DNA of 64,000 nt. Origin: Myxococcota bacterium (GTDB taxonomy: Bacteria > Myxococcota_A > UBA9160 > UBA6930). This document shows, one piece after another, positions 28,712 through 51,353 of this stretch; positions within the stretch are counted from its first letter, which is position 1, and every line of letters begins with the position of its first letter. The DNA is taken from contig OZ245015.1 in assembly GCA_965223705.1 (NCBI GenBank), positions 960,001-1,024,000 on the forward strand, in the 5' to 3' direction. Made by a program: the position numbers and the translations under genes. Under the pieces are notes generated by a model that worked only from the letters and a program-made list of their open reading frames with translations, was not told the origin of the DNA and did no database searches.

Positions 28712-28787
28712 TGGAGCCGACGAGCGGATTTGAACCGCTGACCTGCTGATTACGAATCAGCTGCTCTACCAACTGAGCTACGTCGGC
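28712..28787 (-). tRNA. tRNA-Thr(CGT)
   Basis: 76-nt cloverleaf GCCGACG...TAGCTCAGTTGGTAGAGC...CTGATTCGTAATCAG...GGTTCAAATCC...CGTCGGCTCCA. Confidence 0.97.
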
Positions 28788-38215: not shown

Positions 38216-39187
38216 ATGCGCATTCTCTCTGGGATCACCCCTTCGGGCGAACCCCACATCGGCAACTACTTCGGCGCGATCCGCCAATACGTTGAGCTGC
38301 AGGCGAAGGGTCAGGCGATCTACTTCATCGCCGACTACCACTCGATGAACAGCGTGCGCGACGCGAAGGAACGCCGGCGCCTGGTGCACGAGGTCGCGCT
38401 CGATTTTCTGGCGTGTGGCCTCGATCCCGAGAACGCCATTCTCTACCGGCAATCCGATCTTCCGGAGCTCTGCGAGCTGTGCTGGCTGCTCACGACGATC
38501 ACGCCGATGGGGCTTCTCGAACGCGGCCACGCTTACAAAGACAAAGTGGCACAGGGCCAGTCCGCGGATCACGGCCTGTTTGCGTACCCCGTACTGATGG
38601 CGGCGGATATTCTCATCTACCGCTCCGATCTCGTCCCGGTCGGGCAAGACCAGAAGCAGCACATCGAAATGACGCGCGATCTCGCGCAGCGCTTCAACAA
38701 CACGTACGGGGAAGAAGTGTTCGCGCTTCCCGAGCCCTATATCCTCGACGACGTCGCCGTCGTACCCGGGACCGACGGGCGCAAGATGAGCAAGAGCTAC
38801 GACAACACCCTGCGCCCATTTTGGTCGAAGGGGAAGCTCAAGAAAGCGGTGATGGGGATCGTCACGGATTCGACCCCGGTCGAAGAGCCGAAAGACACGT
38901 CATCCGCCGTGTTCCAGTTGTGGTCGTTGTTCGCCACCGAGGACGAGCGCGAATCGATGTTCGCCCGCGCGAAGGCTGGCGGCTTGGGCTACGGCGACGT
39001 CAAGAAGGACCTTCTCGCGCGCATTCTCGAGACGTTCGGGCCCATGCGCGAGCGGCGTGAAGAGCTCGCGAAAGACACCGATCTTGTCGAGGGCGTGCTG
39101 GCGGACGGTGCCGCGCGGGCGCGCGCGTTGGCCGCTCCGGTGATCGCTGCCGCGCGGGCGGCCGCCGGGGTCGGGTCGGCCGCTTAA
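38216..39187 (+). CDS. trpS: tryptophan--tRNA ligase
   Basis: SGITPSG, HIGN, YPVLMAADIL, KMSKS. Confidence 0.96.
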   Translation: MRILSGITPSGEPHIGNYFGAIRQYVELQAKGQAIYFIADYHSMNSVRDAKERRRLVHEVALDFLACGLDPENAILYRQSDLPELCELCWLLTTITPMGLLERGHAYKDKVAQGQSADHGLFAYPVLMAADILIYRSDLVPVGQDQKQHIEMTRDLAQRFNNTYGEEVFALPEPYILDDVAVVPGTDGRKMSKSYDNTLRPFWSKGKLKKAVMGIVTDSTPVEEPKDTSSAVFQLWSLFATEDERESMFARAKAGGLGYGDVKKDLLARILETFGPMRERREELAKDTDLVEGVLADGAARARALAAPVIAAARAAAGVGSAA

Positions 39188-39508: not shown

Positions 39509-41971
39509 CTAGTCGACGATTGCCAAGAGTTCCTGCGCAATTTCCGTCGCACTTTGCGGGCGTCTTGCCGGATCTTTTTCGAGCGTGCGCAGCAACAACG
39601 CAGCCAGCCGCGGATCGAAGTCTGCCGCGATCGACCGCGGATCCGGGGCCTGCGTGTTTCGGTGGTGCCACATGATGTCGCCTTCTTTGAAGGGGACGAT
39701 CCCGGTGCCGAGTTCAAACAACGTGACGCCTAGGGAATACAAGTCCGCGCGGTGGTCGACGCCTTTGCCGGTGACCTGCTCGGGGGACATGTAGTAGGGC
39801 GTCCCGCCGACCAAGGTCTTCGCGCGGCGCACTTCTTCGAGCATCTTGGCGAGACCGAAGTCCATGATCTTGAGGACTTTGTCGCGCGTGAAGAGCAGGT
39901 TCGCCGTCTTGACATCGCGGTGAATGATGCGCCGATCGTGCGCGTATTGCAGGCCGGCCGCCGCTTGAACGCCGAGACGCGCTACATCCGCTGTCGACAA
40001 GCGTCCTCGCTTACGGAGGATCTGACTCAGCGTGAGCCCTTCGAGAAACTCCATCGTGAGAAAGAACACACCGTTCTCTTCGTCGACGTCGTGGAGCGTA
40101 ACGATGTTCGGGTGGTTCAGCGCCGCTGCGCTCCGCGCCTCGCGCAAGAAGAGTTGTACGGCCTTGGGGTTCTCTTTCAGGTTGTCCGGGAGCTGCTTGA
40201 GCGCCACCACCCGACCGAGGCGGGTATCCAAGGCGCGGTACACGACGCCCATACCGCCGCGCCCGATTTCGGCCTGGAGCTCGTAGCGATGCCCCTGACC
40301 GACGCCTTGACCTTTCGAGAACGAACCGCCCAGGGCGCGCGTAATCGATTGCCGTTTGCGCAGCGCGTCGATGCGTTCCGTGAGGCCTTCGCGCTCGGGA
40401 TCGTCCGCGGCGACGCGCTCCCAAGCGAGGAGGGCGCGATCGGTCTGGCCGGAGCGCTCCAAGATCTCTCCGAACCACGCGAAGGTGTCGGCGGACGCCT
40501 TTGCGTTCGGTTCGAGCGACACGATTTCCTCCGCGCGCTGGAGGCCCAGCTCGATCTTGTCCTCTTCGATGTAGAGATCGGCCAGCATGCGGCACGCACG
40601 ATCGTACGAGGGGTGGCGCGCATTCACCTGCTGCAGATTGCGGATGGCGCGGCTCTTGTCGTTGCGGGTGATGCAAAGCTCTCCCGCTTCAAAACAGTCC
40701 CCGCGCTTCTCGAGCACGTCGATGAGCTTCGGAATGGCCTCGCAGTCGCGGTAGCAGATCTCGGCACTCTCGAGGTCGCCCGCTTCTTCATAGGCACGCC
40801 CGGCGCGCAGCAGGTCGCCGGCGGCGTTGTAGAGCTCGGCCGCCTGCGCGGAATCGCCGGCCTGCTCGTAGAGCGCCGCCGCGCGCTCGAAAGCGCCGAC
40901 ATCGGCGTAACACTGAGCCGCCTCGAAAAGCCTCCCGGCTGCGACAAACTGCGTCGCCGCGGTTTCGTGATCTCCCTTGGCGAGCAGACTTCGCGCGGAG
41001 AGAACGCGGCCTCGCTTGAGGTCGCCCGCGCGTTCGAGTGCCGTGCCCGCGGCTTCGAAATCGCCTTGCAGGTACGGCTCGACGGCTTCCGGACAGCCAT
41101 CGAACACCAGCTCGAGATCGTTTTCTACGTCGAGCGTGATTTGACGCGCCTCGAGGGATTCGATTTCGAGGGTGTGTTCGAGCACGACGCCATCACCACC
41201 GACGATCAACGTGTGCGCGCCTTTCTCGAGCTCCAAGCGGAAAACACCGGCACGCGCGTAGCGGAGCGCGTCGCTACTTCCAGTGACGGCGAGGCGCACG
41301 TCGGAGAGCGGAATAGCGCCGCGCATCACCCGCAACTCGATCATGCACTCCGTCGGCGCTAGATCGAACGCCAAGCGCGCGACGCGACCCCGTTCGACAC
41401 TCGCCTGCTGCTCGAGGGCAACGTGCCGGCACTCGCCCGTCCTCGTGTCTTCGAGCTGCCCCTCGACGAGCACGAAGTAGTGCCGCGAAGGAATGGCGTG
41501 AAACTGCGTTTCTCGCGACACACTGTTGTGTTCGAACCGACTCGACGCGCGGTCGATCGCCGCCGTTTCTTCCGCTGCCGTGCGGCGCGTCAGCCGCTGG
41601 CGCGAGACGCGGACGCTGAAGGTGCCGCGGAACTCGTTGGGGTATTCGAGCGAGATCGCGATGTCGCCTTTCGAGCGAAGCGATTTCGCGACGAGCGACA
41701 GGACGAGGGCCGCCGTCAGGACGAGGGCTGCGACCACCGCGCCGATCGAATCCGCGTTCGCGGAAGCGTCGGCGGTCGTCCGGGCGAGAGCGGGCGCCGC
41801 GGCTGCTCCACAGATCGCGGTCGAGAGCCCTAAGCCTTTGGGAACCCAGGGTCTTTCCCGGGAAAAGGACTCCCTCGTTATGTGTTTGGCGCGCAGCAAA
41901 CCGTCTTCTCGAATCGGCCGTTCGGAGCGCTCGATTGAGGGCGACCACGAGTCGCGGTGCTCTCGCACCAA
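39509..41971 (-). CDS. Ser/Thr protein kinase with a TM segment and TPR-like repeats
   Basis: GRGGMG, VALK, HRDVK, DFG, GTPYYMSPE; start uncertain. Confidence 0.9.
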   Translation of the reverse strand: MVREHRDSWSPSIERSERPIREDGLLRAKHITRESFSRERPWVPKGLGLSTAICGAAAAPALARTTADASANADSIGAVVAALVLTAALVLSLVAKSLRSKGDIAISLEYPNEFRGTFSVRVSRQRLTRRTAAEETAAIDRASSRFEHNSVSRETQFHAIPSRHYFVLVEGQLEDTRTGECRHVALEQQASVERGRVARLAFDLAPTECMIELRVMRGAIPLSDVRLAVTGSSDALRYARAGVFRLELEKGAHTLIVGGDGVVLEHTLEIESLEARQITLDVENDLELVFDGCPEAVEPYLQGDFEAAGTALERAGDLKRGRVLSARSLLAKGDHETAATQFVAAGRLFEAAQCYADVGAFERAAALYEQAGDSAQAAELYNAAGDLLRAGRAYEEAGDLESAEICYRDCEAIPKLIDVLEKRGDCFEAGELCITRNDKSRAIRNLQQVNARHPSYDRACRMLADLYIEEDKIELGLQRAEEIVSLEPNAKASADTFAWFGEILERSGQTDRALLAWERVAADDPEREGLTERIDALRKRQSITRALGGSFSKGQGVGQGHRYELQAEIGRGGMGVVYRALDTRLGRVVALKQLPDNLKENPKAVQLFLREARSAAALNHPNIVTLHDVDEENGVFFLTMEFLEGLTLSQILRKRGRLSTADVARLGVQAAAGLQYAHDRRIIHRDVKTANLLFTRDKVLKIMDFGLAKMLEEVRRAKTLVGGTPYYMSPEQVTGKGVDHRADLYSLGVTLFELGTGIVPFKEGDIMWHHRNTQAPDPRSIAADFDPRLAALLLRTLEKDPARRPQSATEIAQELLAIVD

Positions 41972-43448: not shown

Positions 43449-44255
43449 CTACGTCATGACGGCGAGCTGCCGACACTCCGCGAGGAGCACCCCGTCCTCG
43501 CTCCAAACCTCCCCGTCCTCGACGAGGCAACCGTCGCGCACCGTCTGCGTGACGAGTCGGATGAGGACGAACGCGTCGGCGCCGAAGGGAAGGCTGCGCG
43601 GATCACATCGGAAGTGGATCGTCAGGTCGACCGTCGAAACGCCGGCGACGGGCCCGTCCCGGTGGGCCCAGGCCAGGAGAGCGGGGGGCCACACATCGCA
43701 GTACGCGGCGAGAAGCGGAGCGTCGATGACGCCCGGCGGGTCGACGAGCCGAATCCAACCGCCGGCCTCCGCGTGCGGCAAGCCTTCCCACGGTTCGCCG
43801 CCAAAGACGGGTCGGCGCTCGAAGTGCGCGCGCAGTGGCGGATGCTCGGGGCGTACCGAAATGGTACGCACGTCGCTTGAAGGCGGCGCCTGAGGCGCTT
43901 CGCGGTGCGCGAGCTCGAGCCCGCCTCGCGGCGTCCCGCACGCGAGAACCCCCAGCACACACAGTTTCTCGCCCTGCATCATTCGCATCGTCGCGGTCGA
44001 GAAACGCCGGCCGGTTCGTTCGATCGCGACGTGAATCGCCACTTTGGCCGCCGTCGGCGGACGCAAGTAGTGCAGTGTGAGAGAACGCGGCGTCCGCTCG
44101 TCGTCACCGAGCTCTGCGAGAGCGGCGCGCAAGGTAATCGCCGCGAGGAAGCCGCCATTCGGTCCCGCATCGATCCACCAGGAGCGATGGATGAACGCTT
44201 CGTAGACACCATCGCCGATCGGAGTGACGGCCGTGTCGCGTTCGAAGCGGGTCAT
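43449..44255 (-). CDS. acyl-CoA thioesterase (TesB-like double hotdog)
   Basis: GPNGG, HYLRP, D..PP, TVDLTIHF, RQLA. Confidence 0.85.
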   Translation of the reverse strand: MTRFERDTAVTPIGDGVYEAFIHRSWWIDAGPNGGFLAAITLRAALAELGDDERTPRSLTLHYLRPPTAAKVAIHVAIERTGRRFSTATMRMMQGEKLCVLGVLACGTPRGGLELAHREAPQAPPSSDVRTISVRPEHPPLRAHFERRPVFGGEPWEGLPHAEAGGWIRLVDPPGVIDAPLLAAYCDVWPPALLAWAHRDGPVAGVSTVDLTIHFRCDPRSLPFGADAFVLIRLVTQTVRDGCLVEDGEVWSEDGVLLAECRQLAVMT

Positions 44256-44995
44256 CGAGGGTTCCTTCTTTGATCGATCTGCCTCATTCGCTCTCCTACC
44301 ACCATGGCCATGGCGGCTTGCAAGTTGTAGGACGGAATGAATCCGTGCATCGGGAGACGCAACACGCGGTCTGCCCGGGCGAGGTGATCTTCCGGGACGC
44401 CGTGCTTTTCGCCGCCGACGATCAGTAGCACGGGCCCCGAGAGATCGATCTCCCAGGGCGCGACGTCTCCGGAATCTTCTACGGCAAAGATCTGCCGGCC
44501 GGCGCGGCGCGCAGCATCGATGACGCCGAGGCCATCGTCCCAGAAGACGGGCATGAAGCGGTCGGCGCGCATCGAGGCGCGCAACGCTTCGCGTTTTCCT
44601 TCGTGGGCCATCCGGTTGTCTACGAAACAGGCGTCGGCGCCCGAGACTTCCGCACAGCGGATCCCGAAACCCGCGTTTCCAGGGTAGGCGACGTTCACGA
44701 GGAGCCACGCGGCACCGCCGCGGGCGAGGGCCGCTTCGCGGTCGACATCGGCGTCGGCACCCACCAGGCCCAGCACTTCGGCCGGCGGATCGGATTTCGA
44801 CAGGCGCCACAGGGAGGCTTCACTCGTCTCGCGAACCGCGATCGATTCCGCGCGGGCCCGCGCGAGGAGGGCCGGCACGCGTGGGTCGCGGGGCTCGCGG
44901 TGGGTCAACAACAAGCGGATCGGCTCACCGCGATCGAGCGCGGCCGAGATCGCCTCGGGGCCCGCCAGTTGGCGGCGCGCGGGAGCGTCACCCAT
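44252..44995 (-). CDS. TrmH/SpoU family RNA methyltransferase
   Basis: PGNAG..IR, GGEKHGV, LPMHG..PSYNL. Confidence 0.85.
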   Translation of the reverse strand: MGDAPARRQLAGPEAISAALDRGEPIRLLLTHREPRDPRVPALLARARAESIAVRETSEASLWRLSKSDPPAEVLGLVGADADVDREAALARGGAAWLLVNVAYPGNAGFGIRCAEVSGADACFVDNRMAHEGKREALRASMRADRFMPVFWDDGLGVIDAARRAGRQIFAVEDSGDVAPWEIDLSGPVLLIVGGEKHGVPEDHLARADRVLRLPMHGFIPSYNLQAAMAMVVGERMRQIDQRRNPR

Positions 44996-45752
44996 CGCGA
45001 CGAAAGACCAAGTATTCGTTCAAGTCGCCCGACGCACCGTCGGCGGAGAAGCGCAGGGCGAGCGGCCAAGGCAGGGCGCCGATCCAGTGCTCGCGCTCCG
45101 CTTTCGAAACTTGATGGCAGTAGCGCACCTGATCCTCTCCCCAGCGCAACAAGTGATCCCCATCCTCCACGCCGTGCTCGTCGATCGCGGGAAACCCGTA
45201 ACGCGGAAGCTCGTGCCACGGTACTCGCCGGTCGCGGAAGCGCGCTCGCTCGCCGAAATCCCACACCGAAACCGCGAGTTGTCCGCCCGGCGCGAGAAGC
45301 TCGCCGGATCGCTCGAGCAAAGCGAGGCGCCGGTCGCGGCCCGGGAGGTGATGCAACAAACCGAAGACGACGACGAGATCGAAGCGCTCGCCGTGCAGAG
45401 CCGCGAGACCGTCGGACGCGAGATCGAGGCAGACGACGCTCGCTTCGGCGCCGACCTGGCGCGCCGCGTCCCGAGCTTCGCGGAGAAGTGGGGCGCTCGC
45501 GTCGACACCGACGTAGGTCAGCGGCCGCAAGCCGGCGTCGGCTGCGGCGCGCACCCATCGGCCGTTGCCGCAGCCCAAGTCGAGGACCCGCAAGCCCCTG
45601 CGCGGGAGGGTCGCTAGGATGCGTTCCCAGCCGGGCCATCCGCGGCGACGCGTGCGGCTAAACGACGCCGCTTGGTCGCGGTAGAACGCGCGATTGATGG
45701 CGACGAGCGCCCGGGCGGTGGGCGAATCGGACGAGTCGGACAGATCGGACAT
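44988..45752 (-). CDS. class I SAM methyltransferase, Trm9/ALKBH8-like
   Basis: FY...A.SFSRTR..GWP, DLGCGNGR, LHHL...RR...L.PGG...SVW, RYCH. Confidence 0.75.
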   Translation of the reverse strand: MSDLSDSSDSPTARALVAINRAFYRDQAASFSRTRRRGWPGWERILATLPRRGLRVLDLGCGNGRWVRAAADAGLRPLTYVGVDASAPLLREARDAARQVGAEASVVCLDLASDGLAALHGERFDLVVVFGLLHHLPGRDRRLALLERSGELLAPGGQLAVSVWDFGERARFRDRRVPWHELPRYGFPAIDEHGVEDGDHLLRWGEDQVRYCHQVSKAEREHWIGALPWPLALRFSADGASGDLNEYLVFRRDG

Positions 45753-47454
45753 GCAAACGGCCTGTGCAGGAAACCCCGAAGGGGATCTCGACGCGATCAT
45801 AGACGAGATCCTGGCGAGCCCGTCCTGGAGCGATGCCTCCCTCGACCGCATCCAACGACGTCACCCGAAAGATGGCCGCGGCTTCTACAACAAGCGCGAA
45901 ATCTTGGCCCGCTTTCGCACGCGGGGTTCGGACGCGGATGAGGCACGGTTCACCGAGCGACTCCGCACGTGTCCGACGCGCTCGGTCTCGGGCGTCCTGC
46001 CCGTCACCGTCCTCACGAAACCGTTTCCCTGCCCCGGCCGTTGCGTCTTCTGCCCGAGCGACGTGCGGATGCCGAAAAGCTATGTGTCGAACGAACCCGG
46101 CTGCCAACGGGCGGAATCGAACGCGTTCGATCCCTATCTGCAAGCGCTGAGTCGACTCACCGCCTACCGCGACATGGGTCATCCGACCGACAAGGTCGAG
46201 CTCATCGTGCTAGGCGGCACCTGGTCGCACTACCCGAAGTCCTATCGGCGCTGGTTCGTCGGCCGCTTGTTCGATGCGCTGAACGATTTCGGCGACGGCG
46301 CACGCCGAAGCGATTGCGGCGGTCCGCGCAGGCCCGAGGTCGCCGCGGAACCGAGCGCCACCGATGTTCGCGGTCGATACAATCGCTACGTCGCCGCCTC
46401 TCTCTACGAATCGGACGATTTCTCGCCGACCGCGTTCGTAGAAACGACGCATCGCAACGAATCGGCCGCGACGCGGTGTGTCGGTTTGTCGATCGAAACG
46501 CGCCCCGATTGCATCGACCGGGATGAGCTCCGCACGCTCCGAGAGCTCGGCGTGACGAAGGTCCAGCTGGGCATTCAGAGCACGTCCGACGACGTGCTGC
46601 GCAAAAACCAGCGAGGACACGATGTCGCCGCCACGCGCCACGCCATGTGTCTCTTGCGTTCGGCGGGTTTCAAGCTGCACGGGCACTGGATGGCGAACCT
46701 GCTGGGAAGCGATCCCGAAGCGGACGTGGCCGACTTCGAGAAGCTCTTTTTCGACCCGGCGCTTCGCCCGGACGAGCTCAAGGTCTATCCCTGCAGCTTG
46801 CTCGACACCGCCGAGTTGGTTGCGCACCACCGTCGGGGCGATTGGCATCCCTACGACCACGAGACCTTGACGGGTGTTCTCGTGCGCTGCCTCGCCGCCG
46901 TTCCTCGCAGCTGTCGGGTCACGCGGATGATTCGCGATATTCCGTCGACCGACATCTTGGTCGGTAACCGCCGGACGAACCTACGAGAAGACGTCGAGAA
47001 GCGTGCGCGTCGCGAGCGGGTGCCGCTTCGGGAAATCCGCGGACGCGAGATCCGCGGCGACGCGATCGATGCGCGTGCGCTCACCCTCAAGGAGACGCGC
47101 TACACGGCCGGGCGCGGCGACGAGATCTTTCTCGAATGGACGGACGAAGGCGATCGGATCGCCGGGTTTCTCCGCCTTCACTGCCCGCGTGAGGAAGCCC
47201 CTCTCCCCGAGCTCGTCGGTGAGGCGATCATCCGGGAGGTCCACGTCTACGGACAGACGGCGCGCCTCGGCTCCCGAGAAAAACGAGAAGCCCAACACGG
47301 CGGGTTGGGCGCTGCGCTCATCGAACGAGCCGTATCGCTCGCGCGGTCCGCGGGTTACCGGTCGCTGGCGGTGATCTCGGCGGTCGGTACGCGGGGCTAC
47401 TACCGGCGATTGGGATTTGTCGACGGGGAGCTCTACCAACATCGCGCGCTCTAG
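45751..47454 (+). CDS. elp3: Elp3-type radical SAM/KAT tRNA U34 carboxymethyltransferase
   Basis: TRS.SGV.PV, CPGRCVFCP, PKSY...EP, KVELIVLGGT, ETRPD, KVYP, REVHVYG, QHGGLG, VISAVGTR.YY. Confidence 0.92.
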   Translation: MQTACAGNPEGDLDAIIDEILASPSWSDASLDRIQRRHPKDGRGFYNKREILARFRTRGSDADEARFTERLRTCPTRSVSGVLPVTVLTKPFPCPGRCVFCPSDVRMPKSYVSNEPGCQRAESNAFDPYLQALSRLTAYRDMGHPTDKVELIVLGGTWSHYPKSYRRWFVGRLFDALNDFGDGARRSDCGGPRRPEVAAEPSATDVRGRYNRYVAASLYESDDFSPTAFVETTHRNESAATRCVGLSIETRPDCIDRDELRTLRELGVTKVQLGIQSTSDDVLRKNQRGHDVAATRHAMCLLRSAGFKLHGHWMANLLGSDPEADVADFEKLFFDPALRPDELKVYPCSLLDTAELVAHHRRGDWHPYDHETLTGVLVRCLAAVPRSCRVTRMIRDIPSTDILVGNRRTNLREDVEKRARRERVPLREIRGREIRGDAIDARALTLKETRYTAGRGDEIFLEWTDEGDRIAGFLRLHCPREEAPLPELVGEAIIREVHVYGQTARLGSREKREAQHGGLGAALIERAVSLARSAGYRSLAVISAVGTRGYYRRLGFVDGELYQHRAL

Positions 47455-48761: not shown

Positions 48762-51353
48762 TCAGTCGCGCCGGCGGAACTCCAGAGCGTCGCCCGAGAC
48801 GCGCGCGTCGACCAGAACCTTCGCGCCTTCCGGGAACTCGCCCTCGAGGATCTTCATGGCCAGCGGGTCCTGCACCAGGCGCTGGATGACGCGCTTCAGC
48901 GGGCGCGCACCGTACGCGGGGTCGTAACCCTTCTCGGCGAGGAGGGTCTTCGCCTCGTCCGTGAGCTCGATGTCGATTCGGCGATCCGCCAACAGCTTGC
49001 GAACGCGCTCGATCTGCAGATCGACGATGTGGTCGATGTGCTCCCGAGCGAGCTGGTGGAAGATGATCGTGTCGTCGATTCGGTTCAGGAATTCGGGCTT
49101 GAAGTGCGCGCGTAACGCTTCGGTGACACGCGTCTCCATGAGCGCGTGGTCCTGTTCGCCGAGGCTCGTGATGTGTTCGCTCCCGATGTTCGATGTCATG
49201 ATGAGTACAGCGTTCCGGAAGTCGACCGTGCGCCCTTGACCGTCGGTGAGTCGGCCGTCGTCCAGGATCTGGAGGAGGGCGTTGAAGACGTCGGGATGCG
49301 CTTTCTCGATTTCGTCGAAGAGCACCACGCTGTAGGGTCGGCGGCGAACGGCTTCGGTCAGGTAGCCGCCTTCTTCGTAACCGACGTATCCCGGGGGCGC
49401 TCCGATGAGGCGCGACACCGAGTGCTTCTCCATGAACTCACTCATGTCGATGCGCACCATGGCGTGCTCGTCGTCGAAGAGGAACTCCGCCAACGTGCGC
49501 GCCGTCTCGGTCTTCCCGACGCCGGTCGGGCCCAAGAAGATGAACGAACCGATCGGTCGGTTCGGATCCTGCAGGCCCGCCCGGGCGCGGCGCACGGCGT
49601 TCGACACCGCGGTGAGCGCTTCTTCCTGGCCGACCACGCGACTGCCGAGGACGTCCTCCATGCGGAGGAGCTTCTCCTGCTCACCTTCGAGCATCTTCGA
49701 GACCGGGATGCCCGTCCACTTCGAGACGATCTCGGCGACTTCTTCCGCCGTGACTTCCTCGGAAAGGAGTGAGCCTTCCTTCTGGAGGCTGTCGAGCTTC
49801 TCCTGCTCGGCCGCGAGGTCCTTCTCGAGCTCGACCAATAGGCCGTACTGAATTTCGGCGGCGCGTTCGAGCTGACCCTGGCGCTGGGTGCGCTCGAGCT
49901 CCGCAGTCAGCGCTTCGCGGCGTTCCTTGAGCTCGCGCACGTGGGCGATCGTGTCTTTCTCGTGGCTCCAACGCGCGGAAAGCGCGGCGCCGGAATCGTT
50001 GAGATCCGCGATCTCGGCACTCACGCGCTCGAGGCGTTCGCGGCTCGCGTCGTCGCTCTCTTTCTTGAGCGCCTCGCGCTCGATCTCGAGCTGGGTGCGC
50101 TTGCGCTCGAGGGCGTCGAGCTCTTCGGGCATCGAGTCGATCTGGACGCGCACGCGACTCGCGGCCTCATCGACCAGGTCGATGGCCTTGTCGGGCAAGA
50201 ACCGGTCGGTGATGTAGCGGTTGGACAGGGTCGCCGCGGAGACGAGCGCAGCGTCCTGGATCCGCACACCGTGGTGCACTTCGTAGCGCTCCTTCAGGCC
50301 GCGCAAGATCGAGATCGTGTCTTCCAAGCTGGGCTCGCCCACGAAAACCGGCTGGAACCGGCGTTCGAGCGCCGCGTCCTTTTCGACGTGCTTGCGGTAT
50401 TCGTCCAAGGTCGTCGCCCCGACGCAGCGAAGCTCGCCGCGCGCGAGCGCGGGCTTGAGCAGGTTGGCCGCGTCGGCCGCGCCTTCCGCGGCTCCGGCAC
50501 CGACGATCGTGTGCAGCTCGTCGATAAAGAGAATGACTTCACCGTTGGCTTCCGTGACTTCTCGGAGGACCGCCTTCAAGCGGTCTTCGAACTCGCCGCG
50601 GTACTTGGCACCGGCGATGAGGGCGCCGACGTCCAAGGTGATGACGCGGCGGTCGGCGAGCGATTCCGGCACGTCGCCGGCGACGACCCGCTGCGCCAAG
50701 CCCTCGGCGATGGCTGTCTTACCGACGCCCGGCTCCCCGATCAATACCGGGTTGTTCTTCGTCCGCCGCGAAAGCACCTGGACGACGCGCCGGATCTCTT
50801 CGTCGCGGCCGATGACCGGGTCGAGCTTTCCGTCGCGCGCAGCTTCCGTGAGATCGCGACCGAATTTCGATAGCGCTTGGTACTTGCTCTCCGGATCCTG
50901 ATCCGTGACACGGGCGGAACCGCGCACGGAGGCGAGCGCCTTCTCGATCGCTTCGTGGGTCGCACCTTGATCGATGAGGAGACGCGCGGTCGCTTCCGAC
51001 GGGTTCTTGACCAAGCCGAGCAGCAAGTGCTCCGTCGATGTGTATTCGTCCCCGCGCTCGCTGGCGTCGGTCTCGGCCGCTTCGAGGGCGTTCGCGAGAT
51101 CCGGCGAGAGCGTGGGTTGTGAGCCGCCCGACACTTTCGGGAGTGCCGTCAGCAGTTCTTCGGCGTTCGCCTGGAGCGGAGGCAGGGCGACCCCGATTTT
51201 TTGCAGGATCGGGATCGTGCTGCCCTCGGGCTGGGCGAGAAGCGCTTGCAGCAGATGGGCGGGCGTAATTTGGCTGTGGCCGCGCGCAGTCGCGAGCGAC
51301 TGCGCTTCGGAAAGAGCTTCTTGGCTTTTAATCGTGAGCTTGTCGAATCGCAT
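48762..51353 (-). CDS. clpB: ATP-dependent chaperone ClpB
   Basis: Two AAA+ domains ([16 protein letters not shown]) and a coiled-coil M domain, 863 aa. Confidence 0.97.

Follow-up and report, generated by a model that had tools for sequence, protein, structure and literature searches.

A head-to-head pair of Elp3 and Trm9-like genes as a candidate route to mcm5U34 in bacteria without detectable MnmE and MnmG

The MnmE-MnmG(-MnmC) pathway modifies carbon 5 (C5) of uridine 34 (U34) in tRNA and combines with thiolation by MnmA. In the archaeon Haloferax volcanii, 5-methoxycarbonylmethyluridine (mcm5U) has been shown, and Trm9 (HVO_1032) is paired with Trm112 (PMC6144793; here and below, papers are cited for the accessible part of their text). 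A gene cluster of Elp3 and Trm9 was reported in Sulfolobus solfataricus (PMC2584109). Here we describe a similar candidate pair in 64,000 nucleotides of a Myxococcota bacterium (positions 960,001 to 1,024,000 of contig OZ245015.1, assembly GCA_965223705.1), referred to below as the window. An Elp3 gene lies head to head with a gene encoding a Trm9/ALKBH8-like methyltransferase. Judged from sequence, the two probably form an apparently mobile route to mcm5U34 and its 2-thiolated derivative mcm5s2U34 in a bacterium without MnmE and MnmG (MnmEG).

Elp3 is stated to occur in "numerous bacteria" (PMC13315578), and the accessible text of PMC7663514 places it within a single clade of bacteria and reports no direct evidence for 5-carboxymethyluridine-type products (xcm5U34). 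Homologs of the methyltransferases partnering with Trm112 are described, in the accessible text, as not detectable in bacteria (PMC5372719), and the domain assignments accessible in PMC7694415 leave out bacteria for both mcm5U and mcm5s2U. We found no description of a bacterial Elp3-Trm9 pair, and nothing on Elp3 in the phyla considered here, in a literature search that covered subscription journals thinly; a mention within a phylogeny or a supplement is possible.

The divergent gene pair and its products

The Elp3 gene (45751..47454, plus strand) starts with ATG and encodes 567 amino acids (aa). The gene of the class I S-adenosylmethionine (SAM) methyltransferase (44988..45752, minus strand, ATG at 45752) encodes 254 aa. 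Both likely ATG codons overlap within the junction CATG (45750..45753), leaving zero intergenic space; the gap between the starts is -2 nt in the window, and the median is 96 nt across 76 measured divergent pairs, some duplicates included. The start codons were set by the N-terminal ends of homologs. Longer open reading frames, starting at 45694 or 45697 for Elp3 and at 45851 for the methyltransferase, were dropped because homologs begin near CATG. No sigma-70-like promoter was seen at the junction. The region 44200-46075 is spanned by contigs from runs X1 and X2 with no gaps and no differing letters, and by an X4 contig with no gaps and four differing letters; these contigs represent at most two samples of one study, possibly the same sample as the source genome (4.56 Mb, 2 contigs, 95% complete).

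A sequence-only reading of the window had placed these two open reading frames in divergent orientation, had called the Elp3 complete, with radical SAM and lysine acetyltransferase (KAT) domains, and had quoted a series of methyltransferase motifs, all of which is borne out. Elp3 scores 424.5 bits against TIGR01211 (curated cut-off 350) over residues 61-562, and its top match in PDB is the Elp3 of Dehalococcoides mccartyi (DmcElp3, 5l7j, E 1e-95). The iron-sulphur cysteines of the CX3CX2C type are kept (C94/C98/C101). In the alignment, K148, K308, E496 and Y550 correspond to K77, K193, E386 and Y441 of the acetyl-CoA site of DmcElp3, the catalytic residues being those listed in PMC6367351. An N-terminal extension is present, as in archaeal and eukaryotic Elp3. 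The linker zinc cysteines, which PMC6367351 presents as a conserved feature of Elp3 in bacteria and archaea that eukaryotes lack, are missing from the window protein and variable across 48 bacterial Elp3s; since eukaryotic Elp3 also lacks them, they are dispensable for membership in the family. The window Elp3 is predicted to make 5-carboxymethyluridine at position 34 (cm5U34).

The methyltransferase motifs map to residues 31-40 (FSRTRRRGWP), 58-64 (DLGCGNG), 133-136 (LHHL), 141-142 (RR), 153-157 (LAPGG), 162-164 (SVW) and 210-213 (RYCH). Pfam and NCBIfam give generic class I matches only. In a single-sequence search of PDB, Trm9 of Yarrowia lipolytica (5cm2) comes third, aligned from the TR..PW motif past the VW motif. 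With a profile of 67 sequences (the window protein and 66 of 120 matches listed), 5cm2 is the top match, at E 1.3e-15 versus 2.6e-11 for the runner-up. A second profile was made of 46 near-full-length relatives of an insect ALKBH8 domain, taken from 120 listed; few of them carry names, and they are treated here as eukaryotic Trm9/ALKBH8. The two profiles match over their full length in hhalign (P 99.7, E 1e-26, 226 columns). When the eukaryotic profile is run against the source genome, the window methyltransferase comes first by 11 orders of magnitude (2.5e-18, next match 1.2e-7). Automated JGI names include TRM9 for 8 of 120 homologs among the matches listed.

Eight residues are known whose alanine mutants inactivate yeast Trm9 (PMC4678810). 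Seven are kept in the window protein, namely R29 (R35 in the window protein), D72 (D84), H116 (H135), W145 (W164), W168 (W204), R241 (R210) and N271 (N245), and so are the equivalents of Y18, H115 and R122; yeast numbers were transferred through the 5cm2 alignment and eukaryotic homologs, not from yeast Trm9 directly. All 40 rows of the window subfamily keep the seven residues, and two to five are retained by 29 other methyltransferases that were made to fit this alignment (D/E, W/F and Y/F scored as equal). The AlphaFold model of the methyltransferase has a mean predicted local distance difference test (pLDDT) score of 94.7. Its strands 199-204 and 208-213, between beta5 and the next helix, resemble the betaA/betaB lid of Trm9. 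The protein is predicted to be the carboxyl methyltransferase of cm5U34.

The generic Pfam and NCBIfam matches would equally be expected of an unrelated small-molecule methyltransferase standing beside Elp3 by accident, and the top fold matches are indeed other methyltransferases. However, the Trm9-specific residues contradict this explanation, as do the divergent linkage across phyla, the joint presence and absence of the two genes and their matching trees (see below), and it is hardly credible.

Further searches added little context: ESM Atlas yielded only generic methyltransferase clusters, mostly from Chloroflexota and Myxococcota with some Actinomycetota; annotated phages gave no match; among RNA data sets no carrier was listed, which is uninformative as to expression; and 57 matches of 505-2000 aa included one SpoU fusion (see below) and an insect ALKBH8 but no Elp3-methyltransferase fusion, this negative being weak evidence.

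Conservation of the pair and exclusion of MnmEG

The pairing is conserved across several phyla. The best 80 methyltransferase loci in named genomes come from Myxococcota/Deltaproteobacteria, Acidobacteriota, Chloroflexota and Patescibacteria. Elp3 is encoded within 55 of these loci, divergently in 54, and thus the pairing is not due to chance. Seven of the remaining 25 loci have less than 2 kb of upstream sequence, and Elp3 was found elsewhere in the genome in 9 of the 10 non-adjacent cases searched. Among 61 genomes of the order to which the source genome belongs, the methyltransferase was found in 41 (E <=2e-42, remaining matches being 4e-18 or weaker), Elp3 in 41, both in 40 and neither in 19. 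All 40 double carriers have the genes as divergent neighbours. Each gene occurs alone in one genome, and both of these assemblies are fragmented. One genome (G019) contains two copies of the Elp3-methyltransferase-SpoU stretch, on C1 and C20, the methyltransferase gene on C1 appearing split; the duplicate may reflect contamination or an assembly error.

In the phylum of the source genome, 26 of 29 Elp3 genomes have the methyltransferase. All 31 Chloroflexota genomes with Elp3 encode a Trm9-like protein. It belongs to the window subfamily in 18 genomes, all with Elp3, and to a second subfamily in the other 13, where the gene is divergent from Elp3 in 12 cases and located elsewhere in one; for these 13 genomes, which have a short Elp3, we infer the label "Dehalococcoidia-like". 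In Patescibacteria, a divergent Trm9-like gene lies within 1.5 kb of Elp3 at 23 of the best 30 loci. The earlier description of bacterial Elp3 as sporadic is correct in that the distribution is patchy, but the gene is widespread (29/201 genomes of the own phylum, 31/151 of Chloroflexota, 52/121 of Patescibacteria).

Tree distances of Elp3 and methyltransferase are correlated over 48 linked pairs (rho 0.91, reached by 0 of 500 permutations), and Chloroflexota and Patescibacteria are scattered over several places in the Elp3 tree. Apparently, the pair has been inherited, lost and transferred as a head-to-head unit, although transfer as a unit is something we only infer, as shared descent alone yields some correlation.

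Neither mnmE nor mnmG was found at the family level in the source genome, the only genome covered by the mnmE search. The mnmG gene was found in none of the 61 genomes of the order. It is present in 113 of 201 genomes of the phylum and in 71 of 151 genomes of Chloroflexota (a count that includes the unpublished G270), and in both samples no genome has it together with Elp3. In Patescibacteria, mnmG was not found in the only two genomes searched. Thus no Elp3 genome searched yielded mnmG, and this exclusion points to a shared site of action, C5 of U34. Since MnmEG was not found and both enzymes of archaeal and eukaryotic mcm5U synthesis are encoded back to back, the source genome probably makes a modification of the mcm5U type. 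Likeness to Trm9, conserved pairing and the lack of mnmE and mnmG all support the earlier proposal that a two-gene module provides this bacterium with a eukaryote-like wobble modification.

The proposed route, its alternatives and candidate partners

In the proposed route, the stand-alone Elp3 would use SAM and acetyl-CoA to place a carboxymethyl group on C5 of U34, giving cm5U. This step is suggested by family membership and the conserved catalytic residues, in vitro activity being known for other Elp3s only. The Trm9-like enzyme would then grip the carboxylate by R35, H134/H135, R210 and Y24 and the base by W164 and N245, and SAM-dependent esterification of the carboxylate would yield mcm5U, as the conserved active site and the linkage suggest. 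Finally, 2-thiolation of tRNA-Lys/Glu/Gln by MnmA would produce mcm5s2U. The chemistry of every step is that of characterised relatives, transferred to genes whose residues, linkage and distribution are observed. MnmA is present in all five carriers searched, including the source genome, and the latter encodes tRNA-Lys(UUU), Glu(UUC), Gln(UUG), Arg(UCU), Gly(UCC) and Leu(UAA), that is, all U34 substrate tRNAs.

Two further observations concern the tRNA set. The Arg CGN codons are read in the source genome by tRNA-Arg(GCG), (UCG) and (CCG), an ACG tRNA was not found, and two deaminase matches are weak and RibD-like in appearance. TadA, and with it inosine-34, may thus be missing in an archaeal-like arrangement, which would add tRNA-Arg(UCG) as a possible substrate of Elp3. 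A tRNA-Sec gene is present.

A number of observations weigh against this route, several of them concerning the methyltransferase itself. The eighth essential residue, Y243, corresponds to C212 in the window protein, and the window subfamily has Cys (37 of 40 rows) or Val in this column. Tyr is found there in all 13 Dehalococcoidia-like rows and in 18 of the 23 from Patescibacteria; the yeast Y243A mutant retains about 10% of activity (PMC4678810). In one subgroup of Chloroflexota, Gly predominates at the N271 position (11 of 16). Foldseek places 5cm2, a crystal structure truncated at the N-terminus, in the 19th position (template modelling score, TM, 0.73 by target length), and 5cm2 is missing from the 50 VIA rows listed, the top fold matches being other methyltransferases. 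Trees, none of which contains archaeal Trm9, are also equivocal. FastTree separates 135 Trm9-like rows from 29 others (Shimodaira-Hasegawa support, SH, 95). In IQ-TREE runs on a 53-row subsample, three unrelated methyltransferases stand beside the window subfamily (support 83 with LG, 51 with a mixture model), and the approximately unbiased (AU) test on this subsample does not reject a single clade with eukaryotic Trm9 (p 0.42). Rows from Patescibacteria, Dehalococcoidia-like genomes, giant viruses and eukaryotes group together in all three trees (95-98), the window subfamily being the most distant Trm9-like branch. The trees neither support nor reject one clade of the window subfamily and eukaryotic Trm9. 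Thus, of the family assignment made from the sequence alone, the closeness to Trm9/ALKBH8 stands by profiles and residues, and the trees are not decisive.

The giant-virus rows are from contigs of giant-virus type in IMG/VR (L235-L265, many labelled GVMAG), which encode Trm9-like proteins. All eight essential residues are present in 13 of the 16 examined, and these proteins group with eukaryotic Trm9.

Distribution sets limits too. The methyltransferase profile gave no match in three of the 29 own-phylum Elp3 genomes (G100, G119 and G136; L121, L135 and L130), which are near-complete and in which mnmG was not found; cm5U or 5-carbamoylmethyluridine (ncm5U) as the end product, or a more distant methyltransferase, are candidate explanations. 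The pair is not an obligatory replacement for MnmEG: neither Elp3 nor mnmG is present in 59 of 201 genomes of the phylum and 49 of 151 genomes of Chloroflexota, so mnmG loss is wider than Elp3 gain, and the pair fills a gap rather than being required. In such genomes, which include 19 of 61 in the order, U34-C5 may be unmodified, or a third route may operate. Moreover, related genomes are not independent, and the number of lineages behind the exclusion of mnmG is therefore modest.

The same genomes with neither system would fit a pair that acts jointly on a target other than tRNA U34, be it a different RNA, a protein or a small carboxylic acid, U34-C5 being left unmodified. The weak in vitro activity of DmcElp3 (PMC7663514, PMC6367351) could be read in the same way. 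However, Elp3 enzymes of bacteria, archaea and eukaryotes hydrolyse acetyl-CoA in response to specific tRNAs and not to peptides (PMC6367351), and the exclusion of mnmG points to the same U34-C5 site, which makes a target of this kind quite improbable.

Finally, H. volcanii without Trm9 accumulates no cm5U (PMC6144793), and hence products in vivo can be more complex than in the scheme above. One possibility is that the methyltransferase does follow Elp3 in the pathway and yet something other than plain mcm5(s2)U results. The R-Y-C-H motif may shift selectivity, the ester may be processed further (for example, to ncm5U), or the product of the adjacent SpoU gene may add a 2'-O-methyl group, yielding mcm5Um. 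This SpoU/TrmH-family RNA 2'-O-methyltransferase gene (44252..44995, minus strand) overlaps the 3' end of the methyltransferase gene and has the Pfam domains SpoU_methylase and SpoU_sub_bind. It is below every NCBIfam cut-off (RlmB 49.8 versus 160 bits, TrmL 33.3 versus 191). The change of Y243 to Cys, established in the subfamily, speaks for a different product, and so does the SpoU gene, which lies next to the methyltransferase gene in 29 of the 41 genomes of the order that have the latter and is fused to a member of the methyltransferase family in a single 527-aa protein (P0258), canonical TrmL not being found in the source genome. On the other hand, every residue that binds the carboxylate or the base in the docking model is conserved. 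As for mcm5Um, the SpoU protein has an RlmB-like N-terminal domain, its gene is found within only one of the best 80 cross-phylum loci, and its distribution does not track the pair: within the order, 9 of the 19 genomes lacking the pair have it, and in 8 of the 40 pair carriers the same query did not find it. SpoU is thus ruled out as a third, obligatory component; it is probably a lineage-level neighbour outside the pathway. Taken together, an end product other than mcm5(s2)U is improbable.

A further question is whether the methyltransferase needs Trm112. The sequence-only reading saw no Trm112 partner, which is true of the window, but a Trm112/YcaR-like gene of 82 aa lies about 105 kb away (G000:C1:854957-855202, minus strand; L303:5954-6202). 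A Pfam search of the genome had suggested that there was none, and this was overturned by tblastn with orthologs from relatives. The protein scores 18 bits against PF03966, below the cut-off of 22, which three of three close orthologs pass; thus Pfam-only claims that Trm112 is missing are unsafe. The ten best Foldseek rows for the protein are all small proteins of the Trm112 fold, including archaeal Trm112 (6zxw_H, 6f5z_D) and bacterial orthologs (2kpi, 2js4). A central insertion resembles that of XF2673 (2k5r).

The same chemistry could therefore depend on this protein as an activator, as in yeast and Haloferax. Every characterised Trm9 requires Trm112 (PMC6144793, PMC4678810), the candidate activator is Trm112-like in both sequence and fold, 39 of the 40 genomes of the order that carry the pair encode it, and in Chloroflexota 4 of 5 carriers have a PF03966 match above the cut-off. 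However, the gene is unlinked to the pair, 16 of the 19 genomes of the order that lack the pair have it too (57 of 61 overall), and PF03966 gave no match in five Patescibacteria Elp3 genomes, a search that can miss such proteins. The binding surface itself also differs. At the interface positions, V59, F78 and P112 of the Yarrowia enzyme are replaced by R55, T79 and H120 in the window protein, the equivalents of V102 and F116 being kept. Hydrophobic residues occupy the V59, F78 and V102 positions in 25, 26 and 25 of the 26 eukaryotic rows, respectively; the corresponding counts are only 1, 6 and 18 among the 40 rows of the window subfamily, 1, 0 and 7 among the 13 Dehalococcoidia-like rows and 1, 3 and 11 among the 23 from Patescibacteria. 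The F116 position is hydrophobic in all groups, and four further interface positions fail to separate them. For a complex of the methyltransferase and the Trm112-like protein, three prediction runs with no folded controls scored 0.00, 0.83 and 0.00 and were counted neither way. Because the Trm112-binding surface is polar in the bacterial enzymes, Trm112 is probably not needed: it is likely that the bacterial Trm9-like enzymes work on their own, and dependence on the activator, which would leave the route to mcm5U as such intact, is unlikely.

Other genes of the window are ordinary neighbours: tRNA-Thr(CGU) (28712-28787, minus strand), tryptophanyl-tRNA synthetase (38216-39187, plus strand), a Ser/Thr kinase with tetratricopeptide repeats (39509-41971, minus strand) and ClpB (48762-51353, minus strand). 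ClpB also adjoins Elp3 in several Myxococcota loci and in one Dojkabacteria locus.

Comparison with known systems

Read from the genes, the system is the known archaeal and eukaryotic pathway in a bacterial form, which excludes MnmEG in the samples examined and is probably independent of Trm112. A broader proposal, about which we are evenly divided, is that several sizeable and mostly uncultured lineages (the order of the source genome, Thermoanaerobaculia, Anaerolineae, Dehalococcoidia and much of Patescibacteria) run a transferable, MnmEG-exclusive and Trm112-independent Elp3-Trm9 cassette that, together with MnmA, leads to mcm5s2U. As eukaryotic Trm9 falls into one group with the forms from Patescibacteria and Dehalococcoidia-like genomes, these diverse stand-alone bacterial forms could be the source pool of the Trm112-dependent Trm9/ALKBH8. 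If the proposed route is correct, the archaeal and eukaryotic chemistry of wobble decoding would extend to a sizeable part of bacterial diversity, and there would be a concrete answer to what bacterial Elp3 makes in vivo. With a single-chain Trm9, the reaction of ALKBH8 could be studied in a simpler model, and the two genes would provide a route for installing mcm5U in a laboratory bacterium.

Compared with the MnmE-MnmG(-MnmC) pathway, the pair would act on the same site, C5 of U34, with the same partner, MnmA thiolation. However, the chemistry of MnmEG is aminomethyl, whereas that of Elp3-Trm9 would be a carboxymethyl ester. DmcElp3 is, like the window Elp3, a bacterial stand-alone enzyme with the same catalytic residues, but the window protein is longer by about 75 residues at the N-terminus and has no linker zinc cysteines. 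The accessible literature assigns DmcElp3 no downstream enzyme; in 12 of the 13 Dehalococcoidia-like genomes, a Trm9-like gene of the second subfamily lies divergent from Elp3.

The systems of H. volcanii (Elp3 with Trm9-Trm112) and of Sulfolobus (the gene cluster), compared here by description only, share with the window the combination of a stand-alone Elp3 and Trm9 in a prokaryote. The Haloferax system is archaeal and Trm112-dependent, with thiolation predicted to proceed via Tuc1, whereas the window genome has MnmA. The likeness to the Trm9-Trm112 complex of yeasts (Saccharomyces cerevisiae; Y. lipolytica 5cm2) and to the ALKBH8 domain covers the class I fold, the two-strand lid, the full-length profile match and seven of the eight essential residues. 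Unlike these, the window enzyme is bacterial, has Cys in place of Y243 and a polar surface at the Trm112-binding site, and is encoded head to head with Elp3; unlike ALKBH8, it consists of the methyltransferase without an RNA recognition motif (RRM) or AlkB domain.

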